A stretch of 64,000 bases of DNA from Bacilli bacterium (GCA_017404385.1 JAFRCK010000031.1:13799-77798), one strand, 5' to 3'. Positions 4,944 through 33,647 are shown, numbered from the stretch's first letter. Notes: generated from the sequence alone by a model not told the origin. Numbers and translations are program-made.

Positions 4944-5246
4944 AGAAAGATGTATATCATCTTTTTTTATTTTTCTCCCATAATTCTCCCATATTTTTAT
5001 TTTATACTTAAATTAGTAAAGGAGATGATACATGATAAAAAAAGAAATAACATATTATAATTAACATAATAATTACATCAATATGATGTTATATAAACAT
5101 AGTAAAGAATTGAAATCCCTATAACCTCAAATTACTAAGAATTAAATAAAAAAATCTCTTTCTACTCTCATTATTTAACTCTTAATACAATTCTTTACTG
5201 AAAATAATTTTTTTAAGACGTTAAAATAAGGTACCAAATTGGTATC

Positions 5247-6615: not shown

Positions 6616-8568
6616 ATGTTTAAGTTAGTTTCTAAATATAAACCATCAGGTGACCAACCACAAGCGATATCTGAATTAGTAAACGGAATTAACTCTGGTA
6701 AAAAGAATCAAGTACTTTTAGGTGCCACAGGTACCGGAAAAACTTTTACCATAGCAAATGTTATAAAAGAGGTTAATAAACCAACACTTGTATTAGCTCA
6801 TAATAAGACTCTAGCTGGACAATTATATTCAGAGTTAAAGGAATTATTTCCAGAAAATAGGGTTGAATATTTTGTAAGTTATTATGATTATTATCAACCA
6901 GAAGCATATGTACCTTCATCAGATACTTATATAGAAAAAGATGCATCTATTAATGATGAAATTGATGAATTAAGACATAGTGCTACATCTGCGCTTATTT
7001 CTAGAAGGGATGTAATAGTAGTTGCATCAGTTTCTTGTATTTATGGTTTAGGTGAAAAAGAAGAATATGAAAAGAATACTCTTACTTTAAATGTTGGAGA
7101 AATAAAAGGTAAAAATGAAATATTAAAGAAATTAGTAGATATGCTTTACGAAAGAAATGATATGGATTTAGTAAGAGGAACTTTTAGAGCAAGAGGAGAT
7201 ACAATTGAGGTTGTTCCAGCTTATTCTAAATCTAAAGGGTATAGAATAGATTTATTTGGCGATGAAGTTGAAGGAATAATTGAATTTGATACATTAACTG
7301 GTCAAGTTTTAGAAAGAAAAAAGACAATAACTATATTTGCGGCTTCTCACTTTGTAACATCTGAAGATAAGTTAAAGATGGCTTGTAAGAGTATTAGAGA
7401 AGAACTTGGTGTTAGACTAGCTGAATTAAAAGAACAAAATAAATTACTTGAATATCAAAGATTAAACGAAAGAACTAATTATGATTTAGAGTTACTTGAA
7501 GAAACTGGATTTTGTAAAGGAATTGAGAATTATTCTAGACATTTAACATTTAGAAAAGAAGGCGAAGCACCACCTACATTAATAGATTTCTTCCCAAAAG
7601 ATTTTCTTCTAGTAATTGATGAATCACATGTTACTCTTCCACAAGTTCGTGCAATGTATAATGGTGATAGAATGAGGAAGTCTGTACTTGTTGAGTATGG
7701 GTTCAGATTACCTAGTGCCTTAGATAATAGACCACTTAAATTTGATGAATTTAATGAAAGATTAAATCAAGTAATATATGTTTCTGCTACCCCTGGTGAT
7801 TATGAACTAGAGTTAGTAAATAATAAAGTGGTTGAACAAATTATTAGACCAACTGGATTACTTGATCCAACTATTGAAGTTAGAAAAACTGATGGTCAAA
7901 TAGATGATCTTATTTATGAAATTAAGGAAAGAAATAAGAAAAATGAAAGAACTCTTATTACAACTCTTACTATACGTATGAGTGAAGAGTTAACTGAATA
8001 TTTAAAGAATGCTGATATTAAAGTTGCTTTTCTTCATAATGAAGTTAAAACTCTTGAAAGATTAGAAATAGTACATGATTTAAGAGCAGGTAAATATGAT
8101 GTAGTAGTAGGTGTTAACTTACTAAGAGAAGGAATTGATATACCTGAAGTTAGTTTAATAGCTATATTAGATGCTGATAAACAAGGATTCTTAAGAAGTA
8201 CAAGATCATTAATACAAACAATAGGTAGAGCAGCTAGAAACGCAAATGGACAAGTTATAATGTACGCTGATACTATTTCTGATTCTATGGACGAAGCTAT
8301 TAAAGAAACTAATAGAAGAAGAGAAATTCAAGAAGAATTTAATAAAGAACATAATATAGAACCTAAAACTATTATTAAACCTATACAAGATGTTATTAAA
8401 AATACTGATAAATCTATTAGTGATAGATCGAGTGTTACTATGACTAAGAAAGAAAAAGATAAGTTAATGAAAGAACTTGAAAAAGAAATGATGGCAGCAG
8501 CAAAAGAATTAGACTTTGAAAGAGCAACAGAACTTAGAAATGCATTATTTGAAATGAGAAGTCAGTAA
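6616..8568 (+). CDS. uvrB: Excinuclease ABC subunit B
   Basis: RBS AGGAGGTG then ATG 6616. N-terminus [12 protein letters not shown]. Walker [10 protein letters not shown]-terminal UvrB/UvrC interaction motif [19 protein letters not shown]. Confidence 0.95.
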
Positions 8569-8595
8569 AATATATTAAATATTTTTTAGATTAGA

Positions 8596-8621
8596 AAAAG
8601 ACCTAAAAGAGGTCTTTTTTT
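8596..8621 (+). terminator. uvrB terminator
   Basis: AAAGACC-TAAAAG-AGGTCTTT followed by TTTTTT. Confidence 0.75.
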
Positions 8622-8676
8622 GGTTGCTAATAATCATAAAAAATGTTATTATATTTAATCGTTGAGAGTGAGAAAT

Positions 8677-15119: not shown

Positions 15120-16052
15120 ATGAATAAAAAGGAATTTAGGACATTAGATGAACAAATAGATATACTTAAATCTAAAGATTTAATAATCAATAATGTAGAT
15201 GTAGCTAAAGATATATTACTACGTGAAAATTATTTTTTTATAAATGGGTATAGATATTTGTTTTTTGATAAGAATAAGAAAAGAAAATTTATAACTGGTA
15301 CTAAGTTTGAAGAATTATATTCAGCATTTTTATTTGATAGAAATGTTAGAAATATAATGTTTAAGAACCTACTTGTTGTTGAAAATAATATTAAAAGTAT
15401 TATTTCATATCAGTTAAGTAAAAAATATGGTTTTAAAGAAAAAGATTATTTAAACCCTAAAAATTTTATTCAAGACTATAAAGATTCAAGAAGAGTAGAT
15501 GATGTCTTAAATAAAATGAAAAGACAAATTAGAGTTAATGGTGAAAAACATACAGCAACGTATCATTATATTAACAAGTATCAATATGTACCATTATGGA
15601 TATTAGTTAAGGTTTTATCTTTTGGTTTAATAAATGAGTTATATGGAATATTAAAACCAGAGGATAAAGAGGAAATAGCTTCATTTTATAAAATTAGTTC
15701 CGAAGAATTAAAAGTATATCTTCAATTATTATCTAATTATAGAAATTTATGTGCGCATGAAGATATAGTATATGATCATAGAACTCAAACATTTATAAAT
15801 GATACTAAATATCATGATTTATTAAATATAGAAAAGAATGAATTAGGGGAATATATTCAAGGTAAAAATGATTTGTTCTCGGTAATTATTATATTTAAAC
15901 AAATGCTTGATAAAGAAAGATTTGAAGAATTAATTAGAGAAATAAAAATATGTTTTGATAAATTTGATCAAGGGGTACAAATTATTTCAAATGAAAAACT
16001 ATTAACTAGAATGGGATTCCCTAAAAATTATATGGATATTATTGATTTATAG
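15120..16052 (+). CDS. Abi_2 family (AbiD/AbiF-like) abortive-infection protein
   Basis: N-terminal FRTLDEQIDILKSKDLIINN...ENYFFINGYRYLF matches the Abi_2 opening. About 310 aa. Has its own promoter. whiA terminator sits at 15066..15087. Confidence 0.75.
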   Translation: MNKKEFRTLDEQIDILKSKDLIINNVDVAKDILLRENYFFINGYRYLFFDKNKKRKFITGTKFEELYSAFLFDRNVRNIMFKNLLVVENNIKSIISYQLSKKYGFKEKDYLNPKNFIQDYKDSRRVDDVLNKMKRQIRVNGEKHTATYHYINKYQYVPLWILVKVLSFGLINELYGILKPEDKEEIASFYKISSEELKVYLQLLSNYRNLCAHEDIVYDHRTQTFINDTKYHDLLNIEKNELGEYIQGKNDLFSVIIIFKQMLDKERFEELIREIKICFDKFDQGVQIISNEKLLTRMGFPKNYMDIIDL

Positions 16053-19317: not shown

Positions 19318-21597
19318 ATGGCAAACATGGAAAATTTTTTAAATTCTATTGAGATACCTAATGGTGTTGGTTTTGAAATATATCCTAATACAATTCCATT
19401 TTTGTTTAAGACTAAAGCATTATTTCAGAGTTTTGGCTTAGAAGCGGAAAAAATATTTCAAAAAGTATTAATAAAATATGACTTACCAGTATTTTTTCCA
19501 CTTGAATTTTCATTGTCAGTTGAGTCATGTAATGGTGAAAAACATATTTGTCTTTCTAAATTATTTTTTATAGATACAATATGTAAATGTTTTAATAGGC
19601 AACTTCCAGAAGAACTAAATGATTTCTTTTCTATGGTATCTTCTGGTTATTCTAATCACGCTTTTATGAGAAACGAATTTTTATCAAGTAATCTAAAGAA
19701 TATTACTAAGGGTATTATAAAGGAATTAAATGAAACAAAAACAGTAGAAGATTTTAGAAATGTGAGTAATTATTTATATCAAGTAGTCATTGCTTTAGCT
19801 AAAAAACGAAATATAGGCAATTTAGAATTTCAAAAATTCTTTTTACATTTCCGTGATGATTTAATAAAACAATTGAAAAAAATAATCATATGGTCTGATA
19901 AAATATTAGATGATATTTCCATTCCTTTAGAAAATGAATTATTTAGATATGTAGATATTGATAAATTTAAAATGTATTTCTCGTTTTTATATTTACATAA
20001 TTCTCAATTTGTTAAATCTCCATATAATTTAATATTATATGATTCTGCGTTAAAAATTGTTGATTCTATTGAGAATAAGGATGTTAAAATTCAGAGCATA
20101 TATATTTTTTCTTTTTTTAAAAGTCCTGATAAATCTCTCATAATTGATAATGCTAATATTATAAAATTTAATGAACTATTAAATTATTATAAAAATAGAA
20201 GTAATATAGGCCCTACAAATCTATTAGAGAATTATTCTAGAGGTGATTTTTCTGGAAAAACAATTGATGAGATTCTTGATTTTATTTCAAAAGAGATAGA
20301 AAAAACTATCGAAAAATCTACTGAATTAGGTAGTGAAAATGTAGATGCTAATGAAATGAATTCTAAAATAGATGAACTAGATAGAGAAATTAAATCTGGA
20401 AAACTAGTAGGTAAAGATTTATTAAAAGCAAAACATCAGTTACAAAAATTACATATGGTTATGAAAGAAGTTATGCCAAGAGCTATTCATAAAGGTTTAC
20501 CACCATTTAAAGGATTTTATGTTTATTTTTATGATAATGGTATGGTTGCGATAGATAAAATAGATTATGGATCACGTTTATTTGTTATGCCTGTTTCTAC
20601 TTATAAGTATATTTTAGATAATAAAATTGACAGGTTAAGAAAAGTAGGTAGATTAGATAGTGTTAAAGCTTATAAACATGATGAAAGAACAGATTGGTTA
20701 GGAAAAGCAAAACAAACTATTTTAAATAGTACTGAGTATGTTACTGAAGCTGATAAAAAATATAATGAACAAATAGATGGATGGAATTTTGGATACACTC
20801 AAGAAGATATTGATAAAATAAAGAATACTATTGAATTAATAGAAAAAGATGTTTCTTTAACTATTGATGAAAAAGATAAGATTAAAAAAGAAATTGAAGA
20901 AAAAGCAAAAAAGAAGAGAAAGAAGAAACAAAAAGCTAATGAAATAGATAGTGAATTAAAACAATCTAATCCAAAGTCAGAAGAAGAAATGACTAAAAAG
21001 GATAATGATGAATTAGCCATTTTAGAAAGTAGATTAGATGATGAATTTGGTAATGATTCTGATTTTGATGAATTATATGAAGCAGAAAAAAAGTATAAGA
21101 AAAATGGAAATAGATGCGCTTCTGTATCTAAATTTGGTAAAGATAGAACTATAGATGAAAATGGTATGTATCACTGTGAAATGTGTAATAATACATATTC
21201 AATAGAACAAAAATCTAGATTAGACTATCATCATTTTATACCAATCTCAAAAGGTGGCCCTGATACTCTATATAATGGAATATGTTTATGTACTGAATGC
21301 CATAGAATAATCCATTATGAGAAAGAAAGAATTCCAATTAGTACTCAAGGTTATATTTTATCTTTAATAGAAAAACATATTAGAGAAGAAAACCCTGAAC
21401 TATTAGATAAATTTATTGAATATAAAAATTATTTCTTTCCAGATATTAATGAATTAATATCTAATGAAAGAAATAGATTAAAAAAACAAGGATTATCTGA
21501 ATCTATGATAGATATTATTATAGAAGAAAAAAAAGAATTATTATTAAATGAATCTAAAAAATATGTAAAGGGATTTGAATTAAGATATCATAAATAA
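19318..21597 (+). CDS. Large protein with an uncharacterised ~600-aa N-terminal region, a K/E-rich coiled-coil, and a C-terminal HNH endonuclease domain
   Basis: C-terminal CEMCNN...DYHHFIPISKGGPDTLYNGICLCTECHRIIH (HNH with CxxC Zn ligands). RBS GGAGG. Confidence 0.6.
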   Translation: MANMENFLNSIEIPNGVGFEIYPNTIPFLFKTKALFQSFGLEAEKIFQKVLIKYDLPVFFPLEFSLSVESCNGEKHICLSKLFFIDTICKCFNRQLPEELNDFFSMVSSGYSNHAFMRNEFLSSNLKNITKGIIKELNETKTVEDFRNVSNYLYQVVIALAKKRNIGNLEFQKFFLHFRDDLIKQLKKIIIWSDKILDDISIPLENELFRYVDIDKFKMYFSFLYLHNSQFVKSPYNLILYDSALKIVDSIENKDVKIQSIYIFSFFKSPDKSLIIDNANIIKFNELLNYYKNRSNIGPTNLLENYSRGDFSGKTIDEILDFISKEIEKTIEKSTELGSENVDANEMNSKIDELDREIKSGKLVGKDLLKAKHQLQKLHMVMKEVMPRAIHKGLPPFKGFYVYFYDNGMVAIDKIDYGSRLFVMPVSTYKYILDNKIDRLRKVGRLDSVKAYKHDERTDWLGKAKQTILNSTEYVTEADKKYNEQIDGWNFGYTQEDIDKIKNTIELIEKDVSLTIDEKDKIKKEIEEKAKKKRKKKQKANEIDSELKQSNPKSEEEMTKKDNDELAILESRLDDEFGNDSDFDELYEAEKKYKKNGNRCASVSKFGKDRTIDENGMYHCEMCNNTYSIEQKSRLDYHHFIPISKGGPDTLYNGICLCTECHRIIHYEKERIPISTQGYILSLIEKHIREENPELLDKFIEYKNYFFPDINELISNERNRLKKQGLSESMIDIIIEEKKELLLNESKKYVKGFELRYHK

Positions 21598-21623
21598 AAT
21601 TATATGTTATAATATATTTAACA

Positions 21624-21707
21624 TCTTATAAAGAGAGACGGAGGGACCAGCCCTATGAAGTCTCACCAACCTATTAAGTTAGGTGGTAATGCTGGATCTA
21701 TAAGATA
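21624..21707 (+). promoter_or_regulatory. SAM-I (S-box) riboswitch aptamer
   Basis: CTTATAAAGAGAGACGGAGGGACCAGCCCTATGAAGTCTCACCAACC...AGGTGGTAATGCTGGATCTATAAGA matches the S-box consensus (CTTATCAAGAGAGGCAGAGGGACTGGCCCGACGAAGCCTCAGCAACC...). The P1 3' strand ATAAGATAAC can alternatively pair with GTTATCTTG in the downstream terminator. Confidence 0.85.
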
Positions 21708-21775: not shown

Positions 21776-21979
21776 ATGGAATTATCTAAATTACAAAGAT
21801 ACACCTATGAAGAAAGAAAAAATGTAATATTAAAATTTCAAAGACTATATAAAACTTTAGAAGCTAAAGAAAAAGTATTAAGAATGATGTCTAATAATGA
21901 TATTAATTTCTTAATTTATTGTATGGATAATATACATGGAAAGATATTTTATTCTAAATTTATAAAGAAAGGAGAATAA
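21776..21979 (+). CDS. Small hypothetical protein (67 aa), first gene of the riboswitch-controlled operon
   Basis: RBS AGGAGG before the ATG. No recognisable motif. Confidence 0.4.
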   Translation: MELSKLQRYTYEERKNVILKFQRLYKTLEAKEKVLRMMSNNDINFLIYCMDNIHGKIFYSKFIKKGE

Positions 21980-21981
21980 TT

Positions 21982-22764
21982 ATGATAGAAAAAGTAAATC
22001 CATCTCATCCAGATAAACAAGCTGATAGAATTGCTGGAGCTTTAGTTGATCTAGCATATTTAAAAAACAATAATCCTAAAATTGCTGTGGAAATCTTATT
22101 AGGACATGGTAAATGTCATATAATAATAGAAACTAGTGAAGAGTTTTCCACCAGTGAGGTACAATCTATAGTAAATAGAATAGTTGGTTCGGTAACACTT
22201 GATCTACAAATAGTAAAACAAGATATAGAACTTGCTAAAAATCAAGAGGGTAAGATTAGATGCGGTGATAATGGAATTTTTAAAGGAGTTCCATTAAGAG
22301 AAGTAGATATAAAATTATCAAATATTGCTAGATCAATATATAAAGAATTTCCTTATGATGGGAAATATGTATTAGATAAAGATAAATTAATTATTTGTCA
22401 AAGTCATGATAAAGAAGATGTTCTTAAGAAAGAATATCCTGATGCCATAGTTAATCCACTAGGTTATTGGACCGGTGGTATTGATTCAGATAGTGGTGCT
22501 ACCAATAGAAAATTAGGTTCTGATATGGCAGAGTCTGTTAGTGGTGGTGGAATACATGGTAAAGATTTATCTAAGTGTGATGTTTCAATAAATATATATG
22601 CTTTTTTAAAAGCACAATCTACTGGGAAAATACAAAAATATAGCTGCGCTATAGGAGATGAATACGTTGATAATATACCATATAGTGAAATTGTTAAGAT
22701 TGCAAAGGATTATATTGATAGTATAGGTGGTTTTGAGAAATTAGCAGAATGGGGATTATATTAA
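21982..22764 (+). CDS. Miniature MetK-like protein (candidate methionine adenosyltransferase-like, 260 aa)
   Basis: Three MAT hallmark motifs in the right order: SHPDKQADRIAGALVD (cf. GHPDKIADQISDAVLD), RCGDNGIFKG (cf. GAGDQGLMFG) and GGGIHGKDLSKCDVS (cf. GGGAFSGKDPSKVDRS). Protein is ~2/3 the length of canonical MetK. Confidence 0.55.
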   Translation: MIEKVNPSHPDKQADRIAGALVDLAYLKNNNPKIAVEILLGHGKCHIIIETSEEFSTSEVQSIVNRIVGSVTLDLQIVKQDIELAKNQEGKIRCGDNGIFKGVPLREVDIKLSNIARSIYKEFPYDGKYVLDKDKLIICQSHDKEDVLKKEYPDAIVNPLGYWTGGIDSDSGATNRKLGSDMAESVSGGGIHGKDLSKCDVSINIYAFLKAQSTGKIQKYSCAIGDEYVDNIPYSEIVKIAKDYIDSIGGFEKLAEWGLY

Positions 22765-22845
22765 ATACTAGTATGTAAAACAAGTAATATCAATTGCTTG
22801 TTTTTATATTGAGTTATGTTATAATTAATTTAGGAAGTGACTGGT

Positions 22846-23073: not shown

Positions 23074-23333
23074 TCATCTTTTTTAATTGCTCTCTTCCCC
23101 CCCTGACACCTCTTTAGACCTTATTTTATAATGCTTTTCAACTATTTTAGACACCATTTAGATTCCAGCAATTTCTTCAGTTCAGAGAGAGCGTTCACAC
23201 CAGTTCATAATTGACTCTATATAGGATTAAGAATACATTATTATATTAAATTGAAATATCAAAATCATTATAATCTTTTCATGGTATAATATTTATTAGA
23301 GATTATTTAATTTATAAGGATAGTGGTAGTAAT

Positions 23334-24581
23334 ATGTCTAACTATTTTAAAAACATTTCAGATAAAGATGCTTATGATATTTTAAGAAATAAATTCTTTT
23401 TCAATTATAAATATAAGCTAAAAAGCAAAATAACGATTTCTGAGCAATTTAAATTAGTTGCTAGAAATATAAATAATGATGAAATTGAAATATTAGGAAA
23501 GTCAATGATAGAAAAAATAAATGATATATTTATGTTTATAAATAGTAAGGAAGATTTTTACGATAACAATAAAAAAAATAAAGCTTTTCAATCATATTTG
23601 AAAAGAGCTACTGAATTTGATATTAAAACACCAATAATATTTGATCTAGATGGTAATGAATTATATGATATTTATAAAAAAATATTTGATATAATTTCTG
23701 ATAATTACGATTTTATTGATTTAGACAATAAATATAATAGTGCAATGAAAATAACGAATAAATACCTTTCTAGTTTAATTGTTATTTATTCTGAAGATAT
23801 AAATAGTATATATGATTTTATTAAGAATAATAGCGATATTTCAGAAGAATTAATTGAAGATCATTATGATGATTTTATATATAAATATATAGATTTTTGG
23901 AATTCTATTAATTTTAAACAATATAATTATTTAGGAATAAAACTCTGCAAATTTAAAACAAAGTTGAAATCATATTTGTTTATTTCTGACTTAAGTAAAA
24001 GTAATTTTTGTAATGAATGTCTGGGGGTTTTTAAAAATCCTATAGATATTCAGGTTTATGATAATAAATTGTTATATTTGATTGTTAGTAGGTTTAATCC
24101 TATGGGGTATATGGATGACAATAATAGAATAGTATTATATTGGTCATTATTAGAAATGCTATTAACACACAAGCCAAATGATAATTATATAGATGATACT
24201 ATTCAGAAACAATTAACTAGGAATATAACAGATTGCTTTCAAAAATATGGTGTTAATAAAATAAGCAAAAAAGAAATACGATTATTGTATGATTATAGAT
24301 CTGTGATTTCACATGGTGAATTTCTTGAGATTGATAAAATACTAAATAAAATAAAAAAATTAAATTTTATAAATGAATTAAAAGATGCATTAGCAATTGA
24401 AGATGATTTGAAAAAAGGAGATATAGTAGATATTATAAGAATACGTTTACTATATATTTATTCAACAATAATGAAATCATATTTTAATGATTATAAATAT
24501 ATTGTCAATTTAAAAGAATATAGAATTAAGAAAAAAATAATCGTTGATATTATTAAAAATATATTTATAAAGCATGAATGA
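23334..24581 (+). CDS. Hypothetical protein with a possible HEPN-like Rx4H motif (candidate Abi-type protein)
   Basis: YDYRSVISHGEF (R-x4-H). First gene inside the island. Own promoter (TGGTATAAT). Confidence 0.35.
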   Translation: MSNYFKNISDKDAYDILRNKFFFNYKYKLKSKITISEQFKLVARNINNDEIEILGKSMIEKINDIFMFINSKEDFYDNNKKNKAFQSYLKRATEFDIKTPIIFDLDGNELYDIYKKIFDIISDNYDFIDLDNKYNSAMKITNKYLSSLIVIYSEDINSIYDFIKNNSDISEELIEDHYDDFIYKYIDFWNSINFKQYNYLGIKLCKFKTKLKSYLFISDLSKSNFCNECLGVFKNPIDIQVYDNKLLYLIVSRFNPMGYMDDNNRIVLYWSLLEMLLTHKPNDNYIDDTIQKQLTRNITDCFQKYGVNKISKKEIRLLYDYRSVISHGEFLEIDKILNKIKKLNFINELKDALAIEDDLKKGDIVDIIRIRLLYIYSTIMKSYFNDYKYIVNLKEYRIKKKIIVDIIKNIFIKHE

Positions 24582-24648
24582 TATATTAATGTATTAGAAT
24601 TATCAAAAAATGATTTTTTTGTTATAATGCTTACAGAGGTGATTATTA

Positions 24649-25434
24649 GTGGATAATAAACTTTTAAATGATTTTATTTCATATTTTGAAAAAGACAAAT
24701 ATAAATTTGAAAATTTTTGTAAGATTTTTTTAACATGGCTTGGTTTTGATGATGTTATTGTTACTCAAAAGAGTGGAGATAAGGGAATTGATTTAAGATG
24801 CACTAAAAAAGAAATTGATAAATTAGATACTACAGAAATAGAATATATTGTTCAAGCAAAATGCTATAAACACGGAAATAATGTTTCTGGACCAGAAATA
24901 AGAAATTTTAAAGGGACAAGAGAAACATTAGGAAAAAGAAGATTATTTATTACAACAAGTGATTATACAAGTTCAGCAAAAGAAGAAGCATCTGATCCAA
25001 ATCAACCTGTTACTCTTATAAATGGAGAAAAGATTATTGATTATTGTAAGTCTTTGGGTGACCAAGTATTTGATATTCATTTTTCTTGCAATAAACAAAA
25101 ATTAGATGACTTGTTTGTGGAAAGTGCTAATGACAATACAGTTGATAATAAAATAGATGAAGTTATTAAAAGAATTACTAAGAATGATGTTAGAGCTAGA
25201 ATATTAAGAATTCCTAGTGAGTATAAGAATGACCTTAAGGGAAAGAAAAAATATAAATTGATAATTAATGGTAATTTAAAGGAATATTTTAATATTAGCT
25301 CTGATGAAAGATATTTTGGTGGCATTACAAAATATTATAAAACTTTTATACAAGATAAAGATTTTGTGGATGCACAATCATTATGGAAGTTCGATAAACA
25401 AAATGAAATAATTTATGTTGAAATAAAAATGTAG
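24649..25434 (+). CDS. Restriction-endonuclease-fold protein with N-terminal Mrr-cat-like PD-(D/E)xK domain plus a ~130-aa C-terminal domain (GTG start)
   Basis: GDKGIDL...EYIVQAKCYK core. RBS AGAGGTGA before the GTG start. Strong terminator at 25438..25480. Confidence 0.6.
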   Translation: MDNKLLNDFISYFEKDKYKFENFCKIFLTWLGFDDVIVTQKSGDKGIDLRCTKKEIDKLDTTEIEYIVQAKCYKHGNNVSGPEIRNFKGTRETLGKRRLFITTSDYTSSAKEEASDPNQPVTLINGEKIIDYCKSLGDQVFDIHFSCNKQKLDDLFVESANDNTVDNKIDEVIKRITKNDVRARILRIPSEYKNDLKGKKKYKLIINGNLKEYFNISSDERYFGGITKYYKTFIQDKDFVDAQSLWKFDKQNEIIYVEIKM

Positions 25435-25437
25435 TAA

Positions 25438-25480
25438 TAAACATATTTATTATACATTGTGTATGTAAATATGTTTTTTT
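25438..25480 (+). terminator. Terminator after the Mrr-cat gene
   Basis: AAACATATTTA ... TAAATATGTTT followed by TTTTTT. Confidence 0.7.
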
Positions 25481-25519
25481 ATGTTATAATATTATTTAGA
25501 AATGGTAGGTGGTAATAAT

Positions 25520-26398
25520 ATGAAAAGAAAACAGAATTTAGTCCTTCAACCTGTATTGAAATGGGCTGGTGGTAAAAGACAATTATTACCACAATTAGAA
25601 AAATTTTTCCCTAAAAAAAATATAACTTCATATTATGAACCTTTTATAGGTGGAGGAGCTGTGTTATTCCATTTACAACCTAAAAAAGCTGTAATTAATG
25701 ATTATAATGAAGATTTAATTAATCTTTATAGATGCATAAAAGATAATTTAGAAGAATTAATAGAAAAATTAAAATATTATGAAACAAAGAATAATTCTGA
25801 AAGTTTTTATGAAATTAGAGGAATTGATAGAACTGAAGAATATAAAAAATGGTCACCTGTTGAAAAAGCAGCAAGATTAATATATTTAAACAGAACTTGC
25901 TACAACGGATTATTTAGAATGAACAGTGCAGGTCAATTCAATTCACCTTATGGCTCTTATAAGAATCCTTGTATATGCAATGAACCAGTTCTTAGAGCTA
26001 TGAGTAAATATTTTAATGAAAATGATATTGAATTCAAAGCTGGTGATTTTGAGGATGCGTGTAAGGATGCTCCTAAAGGTTCATTTATCTATTTGGACCC
26101 ACCATATGATCAATATGATGAACAACTAAACTTTGTTGGATATACTAAAGATGGTTTTACTCGAGAAGATCAAACTAGATTAAAGAAAATGTGCGATAGA
26201 TTAATTGAAAAAGGTTGTTATGTTATGATTAGTAATTCAAAAACACCTTTTATAGTTGATTTATATAGTGACTCATCTAAGTATGTTACATATACAATTA
26301 ATACTGTTAATGCCAGAAGAAATATTAACAGTAATGCAAAGAAAAGGGGAGAAGTTGAGGAGGTTTTGATCATTGGAAAATTGGATATCGAAAAATAA
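25520..26398 (+). CDS. Dam-family N6-adenine DNA methyltransferase
   Basis: N-terminal LKWAGGKRQLLPQL. Catalytic YLDPPYDQY (DPPY motif). RBS AGGTGG. Confidence 0.9.
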   Translation: MKRKQNLVLQPVLKWAGGKRQLLPQLEKFFPKKNITSYYEPFIGGGAVLFHLQPKKAVINDYNEDLINLYRCIKDNLEELIEKLKYYETKNNSESFYEIRGIDRTEEYKKWSPVEKAARLIYLNRTCYNGLFRMNSAGQFNSPYGSYKNPCICNEPVLRAMSKYFNENDIEFKAGDFEDACKDAPKGSFIYLDPPYDQYDEQLNFVGYTKDGFTREDQTRLKKMCDRLIEKGCYVMISNSKTPFIVDLYSDSSKYVTYTINTVNARRNINSNAKKRGEVEEVLIIGKLDIEK

Positions 26399-27668
26399 TG
26401 AAGCATGGAATTTATTGTTTGATAAATACAATATTGTAAATGAGATTAATAAAAATGGATATTTTGAAATAGCAGCTGATGAGATTAAAACTTCAGGTAG
26501 AGAACCTCGTCTAATGACTAAATTTGATAGTAGTGAAAATTTGCCAGATATTTTTAAAAGTAATCAATTGGCCATATTACCTATAAAACGTGGATCATAT
26601 ATTATTGGCAAATTTCAAAATTATCAATTAGTAGATATTAATAATGATATAGATGTAGAAACAAAGTATTTACCAGATTATATAACTACTATTGATTATA
26701 ATAATATAACAAGTGAAGCAATTTCTTTAAATGCTGCTTATATATCTGGTATGCTTGAAGATATAATAGGTGAACCTGTGGTTCCTACTATTTCTGGTAG
26801 AATGGGAACTGGTGAATTTAAATATCAAATATTATTAAACGATCAAAATTCATTTGATATAAATGTTGAAAATTCGCAAATGGAAATTGACGGAAGTTAT
26901 GAAGGTATTTCTAAATTTGTTATATTAGAAGCCAAAAATCATTATATGAAAGATTTTATAATCAGACAATTATATTATCCATATAAGGTATGGAAATTAA
27001 ATACTAATAAGGAAATAATACCAATTATGTTAATTAAACATGACAACATATTTAATTTCTTTGTATATAGTTTTGAAAATGAAAATGATTATAATAGCAT
27101 CAAACTAAAAGAAATTAAACGATATATATTAGATGAACCTTATAATCCTATTGAAGTTTCAGATATTATGAATGTAATGGAAAATATTGAATTTGCTACA
27201 GAATCTAGTGATGTTCCATTTCCACAAGCTAATACATTCAATATAGTATTAGACTTGTTAGGACAATTAAATGGTCAAGATATGACACCGGATGATATAA
27301 CAAATTTCTTAGAATATGATCCAAGACAAACTAATTATTATATCGATGCTGCAAAGTATTTAGGATTTGTAACAAAAGAAAAAAAGTATACATTAACTGA
27401 ATATGGTAGACGTATAATGAAGATGAATCATAAAGATAGAACATTAGAAATTGTTAAGAGTATTTTATCTCATAAACCATTTTATTTAGCAATGAAACAA
27501 CAATTGGATGATTTTGATTTTAATATAGAAGAAATTGCTAAATCTATAGATGAATGTAGAAATGAAATTAATAAAGAGAGTACAGCTAAGAGAAGAACAA
27601 GTACTGTTACAGCTTGGGTAAAATGGATTTTAGATATTACAAATTATATTGATAAAATTTATTTATAA
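26373..27668 (+). CDS. Putative restriction endonuclease partnered with the Dam-like MTase (PD-ExK motif); TTG start overlapping the MTase stop
   Basis: Strong RBS GAGGAGG 9 nt before TTG 26373, overlapping the last 26 nt of the MTase. Motif EIDGSYEGISKFVILEAKNH (D...E-A-K). Confidence 0.5.
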   Translation: MENWISKNNEAWNLLFDKYNIVNEINKNGYFEIAADEIKTSGREPRLMTKFDSSENLPDIFKSNQLAILPIKRGSYIIGKFQNYQLVDINNDIDVETKYLPDYITTIDYNNITSEAISLNAAYISGMLEDIIGEPVVPTISGRMGTGEFKYQILLNDQNSFDINVENSQMEIDGSYEGISKFVILEAKNHYMKDFIIRQLYYPYKVWKLNTNKEIIPIMLIKHDNIFNFFVYSFENENDYNSIKLKEIKRYILDEPYNPIEVSDIMNVMENIEFATESSDVPFPQANTFNIVLDLLGQLNGQDMTPDDITNFLEYDPRQTNYYIDAAKYLGFVTKEKKYTLTEYGRRIMKMNHKDRTLEIVKSILSHKPFYLAMKQQLDDFDFNIEEIAKSIDECRNEINKESTAKRRTSTVTAWVKWILDITNYIDKIYL

Positions 27669-27721
27669 ATTAAACTAAAAAATTAGACATTTATAAAATT
27701 GTTAAAGAAAGGAATGATAAT

Positions 27722-28720
27722 ATGAAAGGAATTTATAAAGAATTAAAAATTGAAAATATAGAATTAGATATGTCTAACCCGAGAATAGCTAAATATATTG
27801 AAATGTATGATAAAGAAAGTTTATCAAGTGAAGCACTTGCATTGGCATTAGGAAGTGGAGTTGAAGATTCTGGGCAAACAAATTATAATAGCTTATTTAA
27901 TTCTATAAGAACAAATAAAGGAATTATTCATCCTATTTTGGTTAACCATCAAGAAGATGGTAAATATGTTGTAATTGAGGGTAATACAAGATTAAAAATA
28001 TACCAAGAATTTAAAGAAAATAATGTTGATGGAGATTGGGATACAATACCATCAATTGTATATGAAAAATTAAGTTCAGATGAAATACATGCAATTAGAT
28101 TACAATCCCATTTAGTTGGTCCTAGAGAATGGGATCCATATTCTAAGGCAAAATATTTATATAATCTTTGTTATATTGAAAATTTACCAATGAACCAAAT
28201 AATAGATTTTTGCGGTGGTAAAACTAATGAAATTATGAAATATATTCATGCGTATCAAGATATGGAAAAATATTATAGGCCAAAGCTTGAAGCTGAAGAT
28301 GAATTTGACCAAAGAGAGTTTTCTAAGTTTTTGGAATTTCAAAATACTACTGTCAAAGAAGCAGTTTTATCACAGTTTACAATGGAAGATTATTCGCAAT
28401 GGGTAATTGATGGAATTGTTGATACAGCAATAAATGTTCGTAAGTTGCCCCAAATACTAAAAGAACAAAAGGCAACAAAAAAATTATTAAAAAGTAATAT
28501 CAAAGAAGCATATGAGGAAACAATTACTAATAAACCTGGATATAGAGATTTAAATACTGTTTCGTTAGAACAATTATGTATAGAATTAACAAATAGAATT
28601 TATAATATGCAATTAAAAGATTATAAAGAAATAAAAGACGGAAACAGTGAGTTAGGAGCATCTATAACAAATCTTAAATCAACTTTAGATTGGTTTGTTG
28701 AGGATATAAATAAGGACTAA
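27722..28720 (+). CDS. ParB/Srx-superfamily (ParB-like nuclease domain) protein, paralog 1
   Basis: N-terminal NPR box (LDMSNPRIA). HPILVNHQEDGKYVVIEGNTRLKIY (ParB-like catalytic/NTP-binding segment). Homologous to the 30601 gene (LVGPREWDPYSKAKYLYNL vs IIGRKDWEPYEQAGYLYRTL). Confidence 0.6.
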   Translation: MKGIYKELKIENIELDMSNPRIAKYIEMYDKESLSSEALALALGSGVEDSGQTNYNSLFNSIRTNKGIIHPILVNHQEDGKYVVIEGNTRLKIYQEFKENNVDGDWDTIPSIVYEKLSSDEIHAIRLQSHLVGPREWDPYSKAKYLYNLCYIENLPMNQIIDFCGGKTNEIMKYIHAYQDMEKYYRPKLEAEDEFDQREFSKFLEFQNTTVKEAVLSQFTMEDYSQWVIDGIVDTAINVRKLPQILKEQKATKKLLKSNIKEAYEETITNKPGYRDLNTVSLEQLCIELTNRIYNMQLKDYKEIKDGNSELGASITNLKSTLDWFVEDINKD

Positions 28721-29151
28721 TGGAATCAGATAAGCATCACTCACTTGTAAAAAAAATATATAATTATGTAAGAAAATTATATTTTGTTGAAGATGGACTC
28801 ATAGAATCAGATATATATGAAATTCATGGAAATGTAACAAGAATGCCAGAAGGTTTTATACCGGATTTATTTTATATGCATAATAATTTATTAATAATAG
28901 GCGAGGCAAAAACAAATGATGATATAGAAAAAGAACATAGTTTTCGCCAATATAATTCATATTTTAAGTATATTAGTAATAAATCAAAAAAAGGTATAAA
29001 TTGTATTTTTATTATAGCTGTTCCGTGGGAATGCACAAAAACTGCTTTAAGAATTTTTAAAAAATATTCAGAAAATATTAGGGTAAAATTAGTAATTATA
29101 AATGAATTGGGAGTTTATAAAGAATATGAAAAAAATTGTATTGGAAAATGA
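28720..29151 (+). CDS. Small PD-(D/E)xK-fold nuclease-like protein
   Basis: IPDLFYMHNNLLIIGEAKT (D...E-A-K). Start overlaps the upstream stop (TAATGG). Confidence 0.45.
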   Translation: MESDKHHSLVKKIYNYVRKLYFVEDGLIESDIYEIHGNVTRMPEGFIPDLFYMHNNLLIIGEAKTNDDIEKEHSFRQYNSYFKYISNKSKKGINCIFIIAVPWECTKTALRIFKKYSENIRVKLVIINELGVYKEYEKNCIGK

Positions 29152-30601
29152 ACCAAAATATGAAGCCAAATTAAAGTCTTTTATTTACCAATCTCAAGCG
29201 GTAGATTTTGTAAAAGATCTTGAATATGCTGCTATCTTTCATGAACAAGGTTTAGGAAAAACAAAAATAGCATTAGACATTGCTTTATATTGGATATCAA
29301 AAAGAGAGATTGATACAGTATTGATAGTCACAAAAAAAGGGTTAATAAAGAATTGGGAGGATGAAACAAAAATACATTCATTTTTACATCCAAAAGTATT
29401 AAATAATAATAAATCTAGTAATTATTATGTTTTTAATAGTGCAACTAGATTAATAATAACTAATTTTGAAACTATTTCTATCGAAAAAAATAGATTTAAA
29501 CTATTTCTTAAATCAAGAAACGTTGGTGTAATAATTGATGAATCAGCAAAAATAAAAAATCCAAATTCTCAATTAACAAAAGATTTTTTCGAATTATCGC
29601 CTTTATTTGTCAGAAAAGTAATAATGACTGGAACACCAGTAGCAAATAGACCTTATGATATTTGGGCACAAATATTTTTTTTAGATAATGGAAAAAGTCT
29701 GGGAGAAAATTATAAAGAATTTAAATCTAAATCTGACTTATCAAATAAACTTTCGTCTGATCTTAATAAAAAAAATGATTTTGAAAACTTTATTTCTAGT
29801 ATTTTTGATAAAATAAGTGATTTTTCAATTCGTGAAACAAAAAAAAGTGCAAACTTATACCTCCCAGATAAAATTTATCATGACATATGGACTATGTTCA
29901 CTCCAGAGCAAAAGAATATGTATGATAAATTGAGAGAAGAATTGAGAATTGAATTAATTCGTGATGACAAAAAGGAAGAAGATGATGTATCTTCTGTTTT
30001 AAAAAGAATCCTAAGGCTGGAACAGATAACATCAAATCCAAAAATGTTAGATGAAACAATTAATTTTAAGTCTGGTAAAGAAATTGAGTTAAAATCACTT
30101 GTAAAAGATATAGTCAATAGAGGTGAAAAAGTAATAATATGGACAAATTATATATATAATATAAATTATATTAAAGAAATGTTTTTGAAATATAATGCAG
30201 TAACAATAAGTGGAAATATGACTATTGAACAAAGAAATGAATCAGTTAAAAGCTTTAAAACTGGTGATTCTATGGTTTTAATAGCAACACCACAGTCAGC
30301 AAAAGAAGGATTGACTTTAACTGTAGCAAATAATGCGATTTTTTATGATAGAGGATTTAGCTTAGATGATTATCTTCAGGCACAAGATAGAATACATCGA
30401 ATTTCACAAACAAAAGAGTGCAATATATATAATATTATGATAAGGGGAAGTATTGATGAATGGATCCATAAATTATTATTAGTTAAGGAGAAAGCTGCAT
30501 CATTAGTACAAAATGATGTATCAAAAGATGAGTATGTCAATTTAGTGGATTATTCTTATGACAAAATTATAAAAAGAATACTTGATGTGGAGGAAAAATA
30601 A
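29102..30601 (+). CDS. SNF2-family helicase (minimal core; the start may instead be ATG 29126)
   Basis: Motif I EQGLGKTKIALDIALYW, motif II DESAKIKNP, motif VI QAQDRIHRISQTKECNIYNIM. Overlaps the upstream gene. Confidence 0.85.
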   Translation: MNWEFIKNMKKIVLENEPKYEAKLKSFIYQSQAVDFVKDLEYAAIFHEQGLGKTKIALDIALYWISKREIDTVLIVTKKGLIKNWEDETKIHSFLHPKVLNNNKSSNYYVFNSATRLIITNFETISIEKNRFKLFLKSRNVGVIIDESAKIKNPNSQLTKDFFELSPLFVRKVIMTGTPVANRPYDIWAQIFFLDNGKSLGENYKEFKSKSDLSNKLSSDLNKKNDFENFISSIFDKISDFSIRETKKSANLYLPDKIYHDIWTMFTPEQKNMYDKLREELRIELIRDDKKEEDDVSSVLKRILRLEQITSNPKMLDETINFKSGKEIELKSLVKDIVNRGEKVIIWTNYIYNINYIKEMFLKYNAVTISGNMTIEQRNESVKSFKTGDSMVLIATPQSAKEGLTLTVANNAIFYDRGFSLDDYLQAQDRIHRISQTKECNIYNIMIRGSIDEWIHKLLLVKEKAASLVQNDVSKDEYVNLVDYSYDKIIKRILDVEEK

Positions 30602-31608
30602 TGAGCAAGTTAATTAACGATATTTTAATAATTGGTAATGTGGATTACGAAATTAAAAGAACTGAACTTAAACAAAAAGATTTAAAGTTTTTTCCTGAAA
30701 ATCCAAGGGTATTTAGTGTTTTAAATATGACAGATGAAGAGCCTACGCAGGAACAAATAGAAGAAATAATGTGTAAAACAGAACATGTGAAAAAATTAAA
30801 AGAATCAATTAAATCTAATGGAGGTTTAATTGATCCTATATTTGTAAGAGATGGAGATATGGTTGTTTTAGAAGGAAATAGTAGGTTAGCGGCATATAGA
30901 ATTTTACATAAGCAAAATCCTATTAGATGGTCTAAGCTTAAGGCAATATTGTTACCAAAGGATATTCCTGATTCAGCAGTTTTTTCTCTGTTAGGACAAT
31001 TTCATATTATAGGAAGAAAAGATTGGGAACCATATGAACAGGCAGGTTATTTATATAGGACATTATGTGATACTAATAAGACTATTGAAATATTGGCAGC
31101 AGAATTAGGTATTACAAAATCTTCTATAAAAAAATTAATTGACGTCTATGAATACATGCTTGAAAATGGTGATAATCATCCAAGCAAATGGAGTTATTAC
31201 GAAGAATTATTAAAGAATCGTGGTATTAAGAAAGCGTTTGAAGAAGTACCAGGATTAGAAGATAAAATTATAGATGACATTAAAAACAATAAAATTCGTA
31301 TGGCAATTGACATAAGAAAATTAGGAGATATTAGTAAAGTTAATGATAATCTTTCTAGAAGAATATTAAATGACATTGCGAACGGGGAAAGAGATATTTA
31401 TAGTGGATATGAAGTGGTTGAGGATACTGGAAAAATGGATAATAATTATCAATATATTAAAAATTTTAAAGAAAAAATTCTAAATTCATCTTCAACAGGA
31501 AAATTGTTGAAAGATAAAAATATTAATGATATAGAATTTGAATTGAAAAAAATACAAAAAATAATTGAAAATATTTTATTGAATATAGAAAAAGATAAAA
31601 AACAATAA
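30601..31608 (+). CDS. ParB/Srx-superfamily (ParB-like nuclease domain) protein, paralog 2
   Basis: FPENPRVFSV (NPR box). IDPIFVRDGDMVVLEGNSRLAAYRIL. Start overlaps the SNF2 stop (TAATG). Confidence 0.6.
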   Translation: MSKLINDILIIGNVDYEIKRTELKQKDLKFFPENPRVFSVLNMTDEEPTQEQIEEIMCKTEHVKKLKESIKSNGGLIDPIFVRDGDMVVLEGNSRLAAYRILHKQNPIRWSKLKAILLPKDIPDSAVFSLLGQFHIIGRKDWEPYEQAGYLYRTLCDTNKTIEILAAELGITKSSIKKLIDVYEYMLENGDNHPSKWSYYEELLKNRGIKKAFEEVPGLEDKIIDDIKNNKIRMAIDIRKLGDISKVNDNLSRRILNDIANGERDIYSGYEVVEDTGKMDNNYQYIKNFKEKILNSSSTGKLLKDKNINDIEFELKKIQKIIENILLNIEKDKKQ

Positions 31609-31619
31609 TGGAGTTTAAA

Positions 31620-32000
31620 ATGAAAAAAAGAGTCTTTATATTTATAATAATGGTATTACCTTTACTATGCTTGATTGTACTTGACTTTATAAATATAACA
31701 AAATATTTTCCGTTTACTAAAAGTTATGACTGGCTTTCTTTTTTTGGGGCATATATATCTGGTCTATGTACCTTGATTTTAGGAATTGTATCTATAAAGC
31801 AAAATAATACTCTATCTAATTTAAATAAAAAAATGTTGAATAATGATGTTGTTTCATCTAGTTTTTCAAAAATTGATGTAGAAAATGAACATTTCTATGA
31901 AAAGGTACCATTGCTTCCATTGGATAAAGCGTATGGAATTATTATGAAGGAAAATTGGAATAATAAAAATGATACTAATTATCATAGATTTATTATATAA
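31620..32000 (+). CDS. Small 2-TM membrane protein
   Basis: Hydrophobic helices. RBS AATGGAG. Distal part of the island operon. Confidence 0.4.
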   Translation: MKKRVFIFIIMVLPLLCLIVLDFINITKYFPFTKSYDWLSFFGAYISGLCTLILGIVSIKQNNTLSNLNKKMLNNDVVSSSFSKIDVENEHFYEKVPLLPLDKAYGIIMKENWNNKNDTNYHRFII

Positions 32001-32048
32001 TTAAAGGATGAAAATAATTTACCATTAAAAAATGCAATTATAAAAGAA

Positions 32049-32399
32049 ATGAAATTACATTATAATTCTGATAAGAGATATGGTGGTGATATTAAAACTT
32101 TTACTTCGGATAGTAAACCAGTTAAATTGGAGGTAACTACGCATGAAGATAAAATTACTTATTATTTACCTATATGTATTGTAGGAGATAATGAATTGTT
32201 AAATAATATATACAGTGGTAAAAATATTACTATTGAGGCAATATTTTATATAAAAAATGTTTTTAATGTTGTATCTGAAGGAGATTATACAATTCACTTT
32301 AACAAAAGAAATCAAAAAAGTGAGAATTGGATTCATTATGATTTATATGGCAGAAAAATTTATTTTAAAAACATTTATTATGATGATGAAAATAATTAA
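32049..32399 (+). CDS. Hypothetical protein (116 aa), last island gene
   Basis: ORF followed by a strong terminator at 32413..32451. Confidence 0.35.
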   Translation: MKLHYNSDKRYGGDIKTFTSDSKPVKLEVTTHEDKITYYLPICIVGDNELLNNIYSGKNITIEAIFYIKNVFNVVSEGDYTIHFNKRNQKSENWIHYDLYGRKIYFKNIYYDDENN

Positions 32400-32412
32400 T
32401 TATATTTGGTTT

Positions 32413-32451
32413 AAAAAAAACATATATAGATAAAACTATATATGCTTTTTT
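32413..32451 (+). terminator. Rho-independent terminator closing the island operon
   Basis: CATATATAG-ATAAAA-CTATATATG followed by CTTTTTT. Confidence 0.75.
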
Positions 32452-32682
32452 AGTGAAAAAATCATATCCTATTTTAGATTCCATTTACATCCCATTTTAG
32501 ATGTTTTTGTGGCATCTAAAATTTTAATTAAAAATGAACTACAGTGTACAAACCCTTATTTTATATGGAAAAATGTGAAATGGTGTGTACGAATCAATGA
32601 CTAAAATATTCGGCCCCCTGAAGAGAGCAATTATAGTATTATATTAATTGTATTTTTGTTATAATAAACATGGGTGATTTTT

Positions 32683-33069
32683 ATGTTAATTGTAGTCGCA
32701 GCTTTAATAGAGAAAGATAATAAAGTTTTAGTAGCGAGACGTTCTACTGGTGACGAGAGTGTATTTGGTAAGTGGGAATTTCCTGGTGGAAAGGTTAATG
32801 AGAATGAAGATGAAAAGGATGCAATTGAAAGAGAAATAAATGAAGAATTTGAGTTAAATATAAAAGCAAAAGAATATGTAGTCAATAATGTTTGTAAGTA
32901 TCCTACTAAAACTGTTGATTTAAGATTGTATAGATGCGATTATATATCTGGTGAATTTCATTTGCATGATCACTTTGAATATGTATGGGTAGAAAAGAGT
33001 AAATTATTAGATTATGATTTAGCTCCTGCTGATATCCCACTAGCTAAATATGTTATGGGAAAAAAATAA
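32683..33069 (+). CDS. NUDIX hydrolase (MutT-like)
   Basis: Nudix box GGKVNENEDEKDAIEREINEEFEL. RBS GGGTGA. Extended -10 TGTTATAAT. Confidence 0.85.
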   Translation: MLIVVAALIEKDNKVLVARRSTGDESVFGKWEFPGGKVNENEDEKDAIEREINEEFELNIKAKEYVVNNVCKYPTKTVDLRLYRCDYISGEFHLHDHFEYVWVEKSKLLDYDLAPADIPLAKYVMGKK

Positions 33070-33269
33070 AAATATATATTTCTAAACTAGATGCATCAGT
33101 TAATTTAAGTAAAGAATATAAAGGATTTACTACTAATAATTCAGATGGAACATTATTCATTAATAGATTTAAAATCATTAAAAACAAACTAAAATGTCTA
33201 TTTTTAATTGTCTAAAAATCTATTTAATGTTATTATGGAGGTAGCATATAATGAATAGGAGGTGTATAT

Positions 33270-33647
33270 ATGAAAAAGTTTAAATTCTTAGTAGCTTTAC
33301 TAGCTGTAGTAACTGTAATTACATTAACTGGTTGTGGTAAAAAAGATCTTAGTAAATATGCTGGGACATATGAAGGTAATTATACTAAATTAGTTGGTGA
33401 TTCAACAAAAAATACAGATGAAGAATTCTCATTAGATTTAAAAGAAGACGGAACTGGTAAACATAATAGAGATGGAATGAGTTTTGATGTTACTTGGTCA
33501 GTAGATGGTGAAAAATTTACTATGGAAGAAACATTTGTTGGTGATCCAATCGAATATGAAGGAACTTTAAAAGATGGTGAATTACATCTTTATAATGGTG
33601 ATAAAACAAATGACTTCACTTATGAATATTTCTATTCAAAAAAATAA
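33270..33647 (+). CDS. Small lipoprotein
   Basis: Signal peptide plus lipobox LTGCGKK. Terminator at 33646..33669. Confidence 0.5.
   Translation: MKKFKFLVALLAVVTVITLTGCGKKDLSKYAGTYEGNYTKLVGDSTKNTDEEFSLDLKEDGTGKHNRDGMSFDVTWSVDGEKFTMEETFVGDPIEYEGTLKDGELHLYNGDKTNDFTYEYFYSKK

Follow-up and report, generated by a model that had tools for sequence, protein, structure and literature searches.

A defence island without mobility genes and the site-specific boundary of its exchange in an uncultured low-GC Bacilli bacterium

How can a block of defence genes be exchanged between chromosomes if it carries no enzyme for its own movement? The question is raised by a 9.5-kb island lying in a stretch of 64,000 nucleotides (hereinafter the window; GCA_017404385.1, JAFRCK010000031.1:13799-77798) of the 25%-GC chromosome of an uncultured “Bacilli bacterium”. 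The window contains uvrA/uvrB, whiA and htrA, and a phage origin was rejected for it. The island is located between the genes of an acidic protein and a NUDIX protein, and it is bracketed by the 13-bp sequence AATTGCTCTCTTC (23085–23097) and its exact reverse complement (32620–32632). An earlier note on this DNA had described it as an insertion into the loop of a perfect palindrome, accompanied by duplication of a short core. Comparison with other loci and contigs, designated below by L-numbers, establishes that the island ends at a site-specific boundary of exchange, which is not merely a hotspot defined by neighbouring genes. As to the mechanism, we tentatively favour conservative recombination at attachment (att) sites by an enzyme that has been lost or is encoded elsewhere.

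A split palindrome at the ends of the island

At the left junction TTTTTT is followed by AATTGCTCTCTTC, by a run of C residues (seven in total, 23097–23103), by TGA (23104–23106) and by CACC. The left arm (plus strand) represents the outer half of the split palindrome, which would be the B half-site in a model with att sites, and it is identical in all contigs of the same species and in the sister lineage L103. The left copy of the core, composed of the C-run and TGA (CCCCCCTGA, 23098–23106, plus strand), includes the direct repeat proper at positions 23099–23106. The right junction reads CGG, the core CCCCCTGA (32614–32621, plus strand) and then AGAGAGCAATT; the right arm GAAGAGAGCAATT (32620–32632, plus strand) overlaps this core by GA and together with it makes up the 19-mer CCCCCTGAAGAGAGCAATT. 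The 8-bp core is therefore found in direct orientation just inside each of two inverted arms. Neither the arm, even with two mismatches allowed, nor CCCCCTGA has any further copy within the window beyond this single pair. In a repeat search the inverted repeat could be extended to 29 nt at 76% complementarity. The distance between arm and TGA is not quite the same at the two ends, six C on the left versus five on the right, and this difference is constant across all approximately 24 same-species contigs. No target-site duplication was found outside the arms, where the flanks TCATCTTTTTT and ATAGTATTAT have no repeat in common. As such, perfect inverted repeats of 13–14 bp at the ends are compatible with being a part of the element as well as of its target. 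If the halves are joined, the reconstructed empty site has a 14-bp stem and a 6-nt loop, with a DNA free energy of −12.9 kcal/mol (z = −8.8); read as an attB, it has perfect inverted arms of 13 bp around an asymmetric 6-nt loop CCCCCT.

Since chance matches in such DNA are A/T-rich and the observed repeats are G+C-rich, a generic test based on the count of repeats turned out to be too permissive: some 13-bp inverted repeat with an adjacent 8-bp direct repeat appeared by chance in 51 of 150 simulated 25%-GC windows, i.e. in about one third. An information-weighted test was used in its place. The observed arrangement scored 14.7 log10 units against a simulated maximum of 11.8, so that none of 200 simulations reached it. 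Thus, the split palindrome and the direct repeat described in the earlier note, with their exactly complementary arms present as sole copies in the window, are real.

Recurrence of the site around exchangeable cargo

Exact look-ups with the NUDIX protein, the acidic protein and a 260-aa protein encoded further upstream showed that all approximately 24 contigs with identical flank proteins hold the same island. The variation was found in sister lineages. Proteins encoded downstream of the junction in L035 and L044 are 95–99% identical to those of the window, and the cargo found upstream of NUDIX (a DUF6119 protein in L035, a MazG-like protein and a Schlafen-type helicase in L044) is unrelated to the window island. 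These two loci are 95–100% identical to each other on the right of the CCCC(C)TGA core and only 25–50% identical on the left of it, and the identity between the window and L035 falls at the same core from about 97% to about 70%. The left flank is represented by L103, which comes from the same sample as L035. It keeps the left arm with CCCCTG, and the contig ends ...AATTGCTCTCTTCCCCCTG / ...TTTTTTAATTGCTCTCTTCCCCCTG, exactly at the core. Since L035 and L044 break at the core and L103 ends there, the core and the two palindrome halves are seen to be retained when the cargo differs. The proposals that the island is an inserted, horizontally exchangeable unit and that its boundaries lie exactly at CCCC(C)TGA between the palindrome halves are borne out by these breaks.

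The right half-site is not confined to this neighbourhood. A scan of JGI metagenomes with CCCCTGAAGAGMGCAATT gave 44 loci, about 22 of them at 24–29% GC, and nearly all of the latter carry the full CCCCCTGAAGAGAGCAATT. The 19-mer is present in at least 22 other low-GC contigs, from related uncultured bacteria of gut and rumen, where it occupies at least four to five independent chromosomal contexts, and its loci can be grouped by a constant right flank, while the left side is variable. Loci of group A, flanked by DUF362-CinA, have at least four different cargos, and their pairwise homology begins at offsets of −1 to −7 from the 19-mer and extends for kilobases. The flank of group B opens with an amidase homologous to that of the window, and in L086 a NUDIX-SRA/NOV_C unit is the last cargo, with homologues of the acidic protein and the amidase on the other side. 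From these homologies the window, group B and L086 are taken to be rearranged forms of a single neighbourhood; group A, L058 (DHH) and L061 (2'-5' RNA ligase-like) are independent contexts. Flanks of different contexts have no common target motif. Thus, the supposition that copies of the palindrome elsewhere carry different cargo holds for the right half-site, which recurs with variable cargo, but not for the intact palindrome, which was not found in any low-GC sequence.

The cargo of these islands consists almost entirely of restriction-modification and other defence genes: type I and type II systems, McrA, Shedu, SocA/Panacea and a Schlafen helicase. In 17 islands nearly all cargo genes are co-oriented, facing the site and reading the same way as neighbouring genes, and no protein family is present in all of them. 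Degenerate inner copies of the site or palindrome stand within 100 nt of the outer one in L065, L083, L088 and L101, as should be expected if the site is used repeatedly. In L065 a candidate complete island of 4.5 kb was observed (oriented coordinates 4124–4320 and 8554–8641) with an EcoRI-type methylase as cargo. Its left end, arm plus C-run, reads AATAATGCTCTCTTCCCCATAAG and is followed 165 nt further in by an inverse copy, GGGGGAAGAGAG; at the other end the terminal 19-mer is preceded at 75 nt by a second right half-site.

Besides the site itself, the islands have non-coding ends. The left-end module of the window (23107–23333, plus strand) contains CCTTATTTTATAATG (23119–23133) and tandem TTTTAGA-type repeats (23142–23167), both present at the right end too. 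A sigma-70-type promoter with near-consensus elements CTGACA-18-TATAAT (23103–23132, plus strand; 11 of 12 matches), the −35 element of which is formed from TGA of the core and CA of the island, probably drives the island genes. The right-end module (32400–32613, plus strand) is conserved in L035 and L091 with other cargo. It includes tandem repeats ATCC(T/C)ATTTTAGAT (32466–32479 and 32489–32502, plus strand), a terminator-like hairpin with a compensatory change (32495–32521, plus strand) and a 28-nt invariant block ACTACAGTGTACAAACCCTTATTTTATA (32538–32565, plus strand), and in modules of this type GACTAAAATATTCGG abuts the right core. Both ends of the window island share, in direct orientation, the 12-mer CCTTATTTTATA, a 26-nt match and the TTTTAGA-type repeats. 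The window-type right module was registered with three different cargos (window, L035 and L091) and in two contexts, that of L091 being the different one, which argues for mobility of an end that is independent of the cargo. Every island has 130–290 nt of non-coding DNA before the core; in the other islands the architecture of this module is alike and its sequence is not. In 6 of the 17 islands the tandem repeats, placed at about −105 to −160, reach significance.

An exchange without any dedicated mobility could explain a part of these observations. In such a case a chromosomal hotspot would be swapped by homologous recombination in the flanks after transformation or transduction, and the split palindrome would be what is left of a single old insertion into an ordinary terminator. 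The presence of the same island in every sampled strain of the species is in line with this scenario, as is the rearranged state of the acidic/NUDIX/amidase neighbourhood, rich in restriction genes in relatives; defence hotspots that are always occupied and poor in mobile elements are also known (E. coli hotspot #37). But flank-driven swapping leaves unexplained why an invariant 19-mer marks the cargo boundary in unrelated contexts (DUF362-CinA, DHH, 2'-5' RNA ligase), why homology always breaks within a few bases of the C-run, and why one end module is joined to different cargo in different contexts. We therefore consider it quite unlikely.

Possible mechanisms of exchange

The reading that we favour, with confidence somewhat short of even, is that conservative site-specific recombination at an attB of dyad symmetry (13-6-13) has produced the two junctions, which would be attL and attR, and that the recombinase has been lost or acts in trans, as in cis-mobilizable elements (CIMEs). 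A site of this symmetry together with an 8-bp common core has the ordinary architecture of double-stranded recombinase cores (lox, FRT, dif, att). Formerly the chromosome would have carried the dyad-symmetric core site AATTGCTCTCTTC - CCCCC(C)T - GAAGAGAGCAATT, this intact palindrome being our reconstruction. A circular element sharing with it only the short core CCCC(C)TGA would recombine with this site conservatively, giving the order arm-core-island-core-arm, in which the 8-bp repeat would be the common crossover core. The recombinase gene might then have been lost from the island, or the enzyme might come in trans from the host or from a related integrative element. Later arrivals could use the remaining core and arm, so that one cargo takes the place of another or is stacked upon it at an unchanged point. 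In this process a recombinase dimer would bind the palindrome as double-stranded DNA and not as a hairpin, while an excised circle would carry the junction ...ATATTCGG-CCCCCTGA-CACCTCTTT... (also given as ...AAAATATTCGG-CCCCCTGA-CACCTCTTTAGACC...). The long arm of attR and the short arm of attL, both with direct repeats, may be compared with the geometry of a lambda-type attP. Because long and short arm-like end modules with tandem repeats are more in the manner of a heterobivalent tyrosine integrase, such an enzyme seems a better candidate than a serine integrase.

A gene of the required kind was sought in the window and in the other islands. All 10 open reading frames (ORFs) of the island are devoid of integrase, excisionase or transfer genes according to Pfam, PADLOC, NCBIfam and PHROGs, which agrees with the initial description of the island as lacking integrase, transposase and relaxase in cis; the ORFs in the remainder of the window likewise match no recombinase or transposase family. 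Among 58 cargo ORFs of the 17 other islands, most of which are readable for only 1–10 kb, there is no tyrosine or serine recombinase. HUH (Y1/Y2) transposases and IntI-like integron integrases are absent from the window and the other cargo, and the cargo examined contains no autonomous copy with a transposase at the same junction. Annotated phages and plasmids gave no match to the end module or the site. The only mobility gene in any cargo is an IS110-family transposase (DEDD_Tnp_IS110 and Transposase_20) at 5152–6315 of L078, on the opposite strand. In L056 the ParB/SNF2 module, also present in the window island, adjoins a 529-aa serine recombinase, though with different ends. This link is circumstantial, and a role of the large serine recombinase, considered on the basis of L055/L056, was rejected: the ends are not common, and phmmer found no relative of the enzyme in other cargo. 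A 415-aa protein encoded by the first island gene was considered as a cryptic recombinase and rejected as well, since its confident structural model has no recombinase fold and it matches no family.

Several observations weigh against recombination at att sites. An empty allele, in which the acidic-protein gene, the palindrome and the NUDIX gene would follow each other, was not found, all contigs with exact flanks being occupied; by the standard of the earlier note, which had looked to related genomes for such an allele, this is a weakness. The intact palindrome has no matches in JGI metagenomes and none in any low-GC sequence. No integrase-bearing member of the family was seen, within the same limit of 1–10 kb for most islands. 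One recombinase binding both partners would be predicted to require conserved half-sites on the island side, and no position-specific conservation was found in the 40 nt next to the core among 17 island types (at most 0.7 bits), the motif G[AG]CTAAA being shared only within the family of the window, L035 and L091. The dyad symmetry of the reconstructed attP is weak (13/30, not above background), and its island-side half-sites are unlike the arms. The ends of L065 duplicate CCCC only and not TGA. Finally, an identical 19-mer in unrelated contexts would need identical copies of attB at several loci.

Two palindrome matches were found in IMG/VR, at 9790–9821 of L033 and 8121–8152 of L034. Both belong to unrelated phage contigs of higher GC, with arms of 13 bp (16 bp if extended) around a loop TATATT or TATTTT, and fall within an ORF of 169 aa that immediately precedes a 1556-aa tape-measure-like gene. 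In view of this coding location and different loop they were judged a coincidence. The end-module block, the left-junction type and shorter-armed palindromes had no match in IMG/VR.

Since no empty site was found and the island side is unconserved, room is left for a transposon-like element mobilised in trans and for a structure-specific mechanism. In the former case the arms would belong to a non-autonomous carrier of cargo, comparable with mobile insertion cassettes, having termini TAATTGCTCTCTTC ... GAAGAGAGCAATTA for recognition by a transposase or recombinase encoded elsewhere, and the 19-mer would be its travelling right terminus. The invariance of the 19-mer between sequences that vary on both sides from context to context would be natural for such an element, as would the failure to find an empty palindrome in any dataset searched and the unconstrained sequence just inside the terminus, usual in transposons. 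Partial copies inside the ends look like the result of nested or adjacent insertions, and in L065 another unit with two ends, 4.5 kb long, has the arm and C-run on its left. All this should be balanced against the subterminal CCCCCTGA, which is direct and not inverted at the two ends, and against arms that are not flanked by a target-site duplication. Moreover, three unrelated cargos are located at exactly the same point in three close lineages, with several more in groups A and B, although the flanks have no common motif, and an autonomous transposase-bearing copy was not seen. A transposon-like carrier thus appears rather unlikely.

The structure-specific mechanism would be a single-strand route, similar to that of integron attC sites or of IS200/IS605/IS91-like elements, in which an extruded hairpin is recognised and insertion occurs into its loop. 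Targeting of a hairpin had been put forward in the earlier note, and the reconstructed site is indeed a very stable perfect hairpin. Co-orientation of cargo in the 17 islands fits strand-specific, replication-coupled insertion or cassette polarity, but it can also be explained by leading-strand gene bias, which is usual in low-GC Firmicutes. At integron attC sites the structure is read rather than the sequence, so that the unconserved island side, as well as the absence of a recombinase in cis, could be understood. However, enzymes of the IntI-like, Y1 or HUH kind were not found in the window or other cargo, and the intact hairpin was not observed in any relevant genome searched. Elements of the IS200/IS605 and IS91 type insert without duplicating their target and depend on subterminal hairpins of their own, whereas here an 8-bp direct repeat is present and the arms stand outside it. 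There are also no arrays of sites between single genes, the islands being multi-gene operons with their own promoters and terminators. An unusual hairpin-targeting insertion is thus neither needed nor shown by the data, and we regard it as highly unlikely.

Two further interpretations of the site were rejected. CUGAAGA at the junction resembles the core of a hammerhead RNA, but no Rfam family was found at either junction with E values up to 10. Use of a dif site by Xer, as in integrative mobile elements exploiting Xer (IMEX), was dismissed in the absence of a terminus signal: GC skew shows no lasting change of sign and returns to positive. It follows the gene strand in the window, and gene orientation does not flip at group A sites.

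Island genes, their surroundings and known systems

The GC content of the island matches that of its flanks (0.245 vs 0.253). Its tetranucleotide usage is foreign, with a deviation of 0.174 vs 0.088 ± 0.012 for pieces of equal size from elsewhere in the window. The first gene (23334–24581, plus strand) codes for the 415-aa protein mentioned above, a HEPN-like effector of a rare family with an invariant R-x4-H motif. This family makes up only 30 clusters at 50% identity among 1.8 billion representatives; E274, Q293 and R322 are invariant in it, and Y319 and H327 are near-invariant. The AlphaFold model of the protein is confident (per-residue confidence score pLDDT 85), with no solved structure matched (best Foldseek E value 0.76) and no match to a database family. 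Next come an Mrr_cat restriction endonuclease, type IV-like (24649–25434, plus strand), and a D12-class N6-adenine DNA methyltransferase (25502–26398, plus strand), and a type II restriction enzyme with DUF6996/DUF6997/DUF7226 (26373–27668, plus strand; PADLOC REase_II, 2.3e-82). They are followed by the ParB/SNF2 module (27722–31608, plus strand), consisting of a ParB-like protein (332 aa), a 143-aa protein, an SNF2 helicase (499 aa) and a second ParB-like protein (335 aa), and by two small ORFs for a 126-aa membrane protein and a 116-aa protein without family match (31620–32399, plus strand). The attribution of the cargo to defence is thereby upheld for Mrr_cat, the methyltransferase with its restriction enzyme and ParB/SNF2, while the “HEPN-like” ORF has the R-x4-H motif and lacks a match in databases.

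A related six-gene unit was observed elsewhere (L052–L057) in the order D12 methyltransferase, ParB-like (332 aa), 142 aa, SNF2, ParB-like (335 aa) and restriction enzyme (DUF6996/6997/7226). Its middle four genes are about 79% identical at the DNA level to those at 27722–31608 of the window, where the restriction gene adjoins the methyltransferase, unlike the order in the six-gene unit. The methyltransferase-ParB-SNF2-ParB-restriction unit is possibly an undescribed restriction-associated defence system. In some strains of the same species island genes are interrupted: L024 and L046 have the restriction enzyme in two pieces of 59 and 375 aa, and L007 has the second ParB-like gene in pieces of 174 and 150 aa.

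The surroundings of the island, with the NUDIX, acidic-protein and amidase genes, also form a defence hotspot that undergoes rearrangement and that in relatives is loaded with restriction genes. Orthologues of the NUDIX gene (window 32683–33069; 81–83% identical in L037–L043 and L086) stand in tight operons with SRA/NOV_C or MrcB_N/NOV_C restriction-like genes, and therefore the “housekeeping” NUDIX flank may itself be a part of a defence module. Two indels distinguish the sister lineages next to the island. In L035 and L044 genes for TetR, MMPL and a 626-aa protein are placed between NUDIX and a 125-aa gene (window 33069–33270), and in L103 DUF1847 and a 403-aa ORF are placed between the 260-aa and acidic genes (window 22766–22833); the boundaries of both are not site-like. 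No syntenic relative was found in species-representative genomes scanned with the 260-aa protein. In L011 the homologue of this protein is followed by an ORF with a NUDIX box, only 38% identical over 58 residues.

Further upstream, a SAM-I riboswitch (RF00162, 66.6 bits; 21623–21706, plus strand) is located ahead of a 67-aa ORF (21776–21979) and the gene of the 260-aa protein (21982–22764). The latter matches the N-terminal domain of MetK only, with 40 bits vs a cut-off of 309, and is one of a very large family of 260-aa proteins, with 7995 members at E<1e-60. Copies with 66% identity adjoin a ParB-like gene in genomes of Gardnerella, Atopobium and BVAB1. In a 759-aa protein (19318–21597), kept at the same position in the sister lineages L050, L051 and L103, an HNH domain covers residues 620–667 only, and the N-terminus of 600 residues is unannotated. 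An Abi_2 (abortive infection) gene at 15120–16052, between whiA and htrA, represents a second small defence locus of the window.

CIMEs are elements without integration genes that keep attL and attR (PMC5704250). Those derived from streptococcal ICEs/IMEs, e.g. of the ICESt1/ICESt3 family, are similar to the island in being flanked by attL and attR after loss of integration and transfer genes, in reuse of the site by accretion or replacement, and in frequent restriction-modification cargo. They differ in being located at the 3' end of a gene (fda, tRNA) beside integrase-carrying relatives, while here the site is an intergenic perfect palindrome, an integrase-bearing relative was not found, the junction occurs in several contexts and the island-side half-sites are unconserved. 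Another parallel is provided by pseudo-SCC elements, ccr-less relatives of the staphylococcal cassette chromosome (SCC) at attB of orfX/rlmH, which have no recombinase of their own and can be mobilised by CcrAB of another element. They share with the island recombinase-less cargo, short direct repeats with the sequence of the integration site, terminal inverted repeats and tandem stacking, but SCC depends on large serine recombinases and on one attB inside a conserved gene.

The core sites of loxP and FRT are built as 13-8-13 and that of dif as 11-6-11, and IMEX exploit XerCD without a recombinase of their own. The 13-bp inverted arms around a 6-bp asymmetric spacer and the recombinase that is not carried are akin to these systems. 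To our knowledge the site does not resemble known dif sequences, and it differs from dif and IMEX in having no replication-terminus signal and in junctions that are not both dif-like. With integron cassettes and their attC sites the islands have in common co-oriented cargo, a variable non-coding end, a short invariant core and the theme of an imperfect palindrome. The differences are that there is no IntI and no attI platform, that a single site pair occurs in 64 kb, and that multi-gene operons with their own promoters reside in a host of low-GC Firmicute type. Defence hotspots of E. coli (#37, occupied in 97.3% of genomes; PMC10121019) and core hotspots of P. aeruginosa (PMC10250203) likewise combine a fixed position with diverse exchangeable systems in nearly all strains. 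They are defined by flanking core genes, whereas here the boundary is fixed with single-base precision by a 19-bp sequence that is repeated in different gene contexts.

The site sequence was not found in the literature searched. It is conceivable, albeit rather doubtful, that the loci belong to an undescribed cassette-exchange system for defence islands of uncultured low-GC Bacilli, with a fixed, orientation-specific 19-bp boundary, an enzyme encoded elsewhere and no conserved sequence needed on the incoming DNA, which would imply a new recombinase or a mechanism reading structure. If true, it would be a functional analogue of an integron or landing pad for whole multi-gene defence operons, and an enzyme needing only the 19-bp site, if such is the case, could serve as a tool for cargo-independent integration. 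The loci also provide a catalogue of defence cargo, including the six-gene methyltransferase-ParB-SNF2-ParB-restriction unit and the rare HEPN-like family. Because the boundary is base-exact here and is repeated at several loci, in several species belonging to one uncultured clade, the question of how chromosomal defence islands are exchanged without mobility genes becomes testable in complete genomes and metagenomes.

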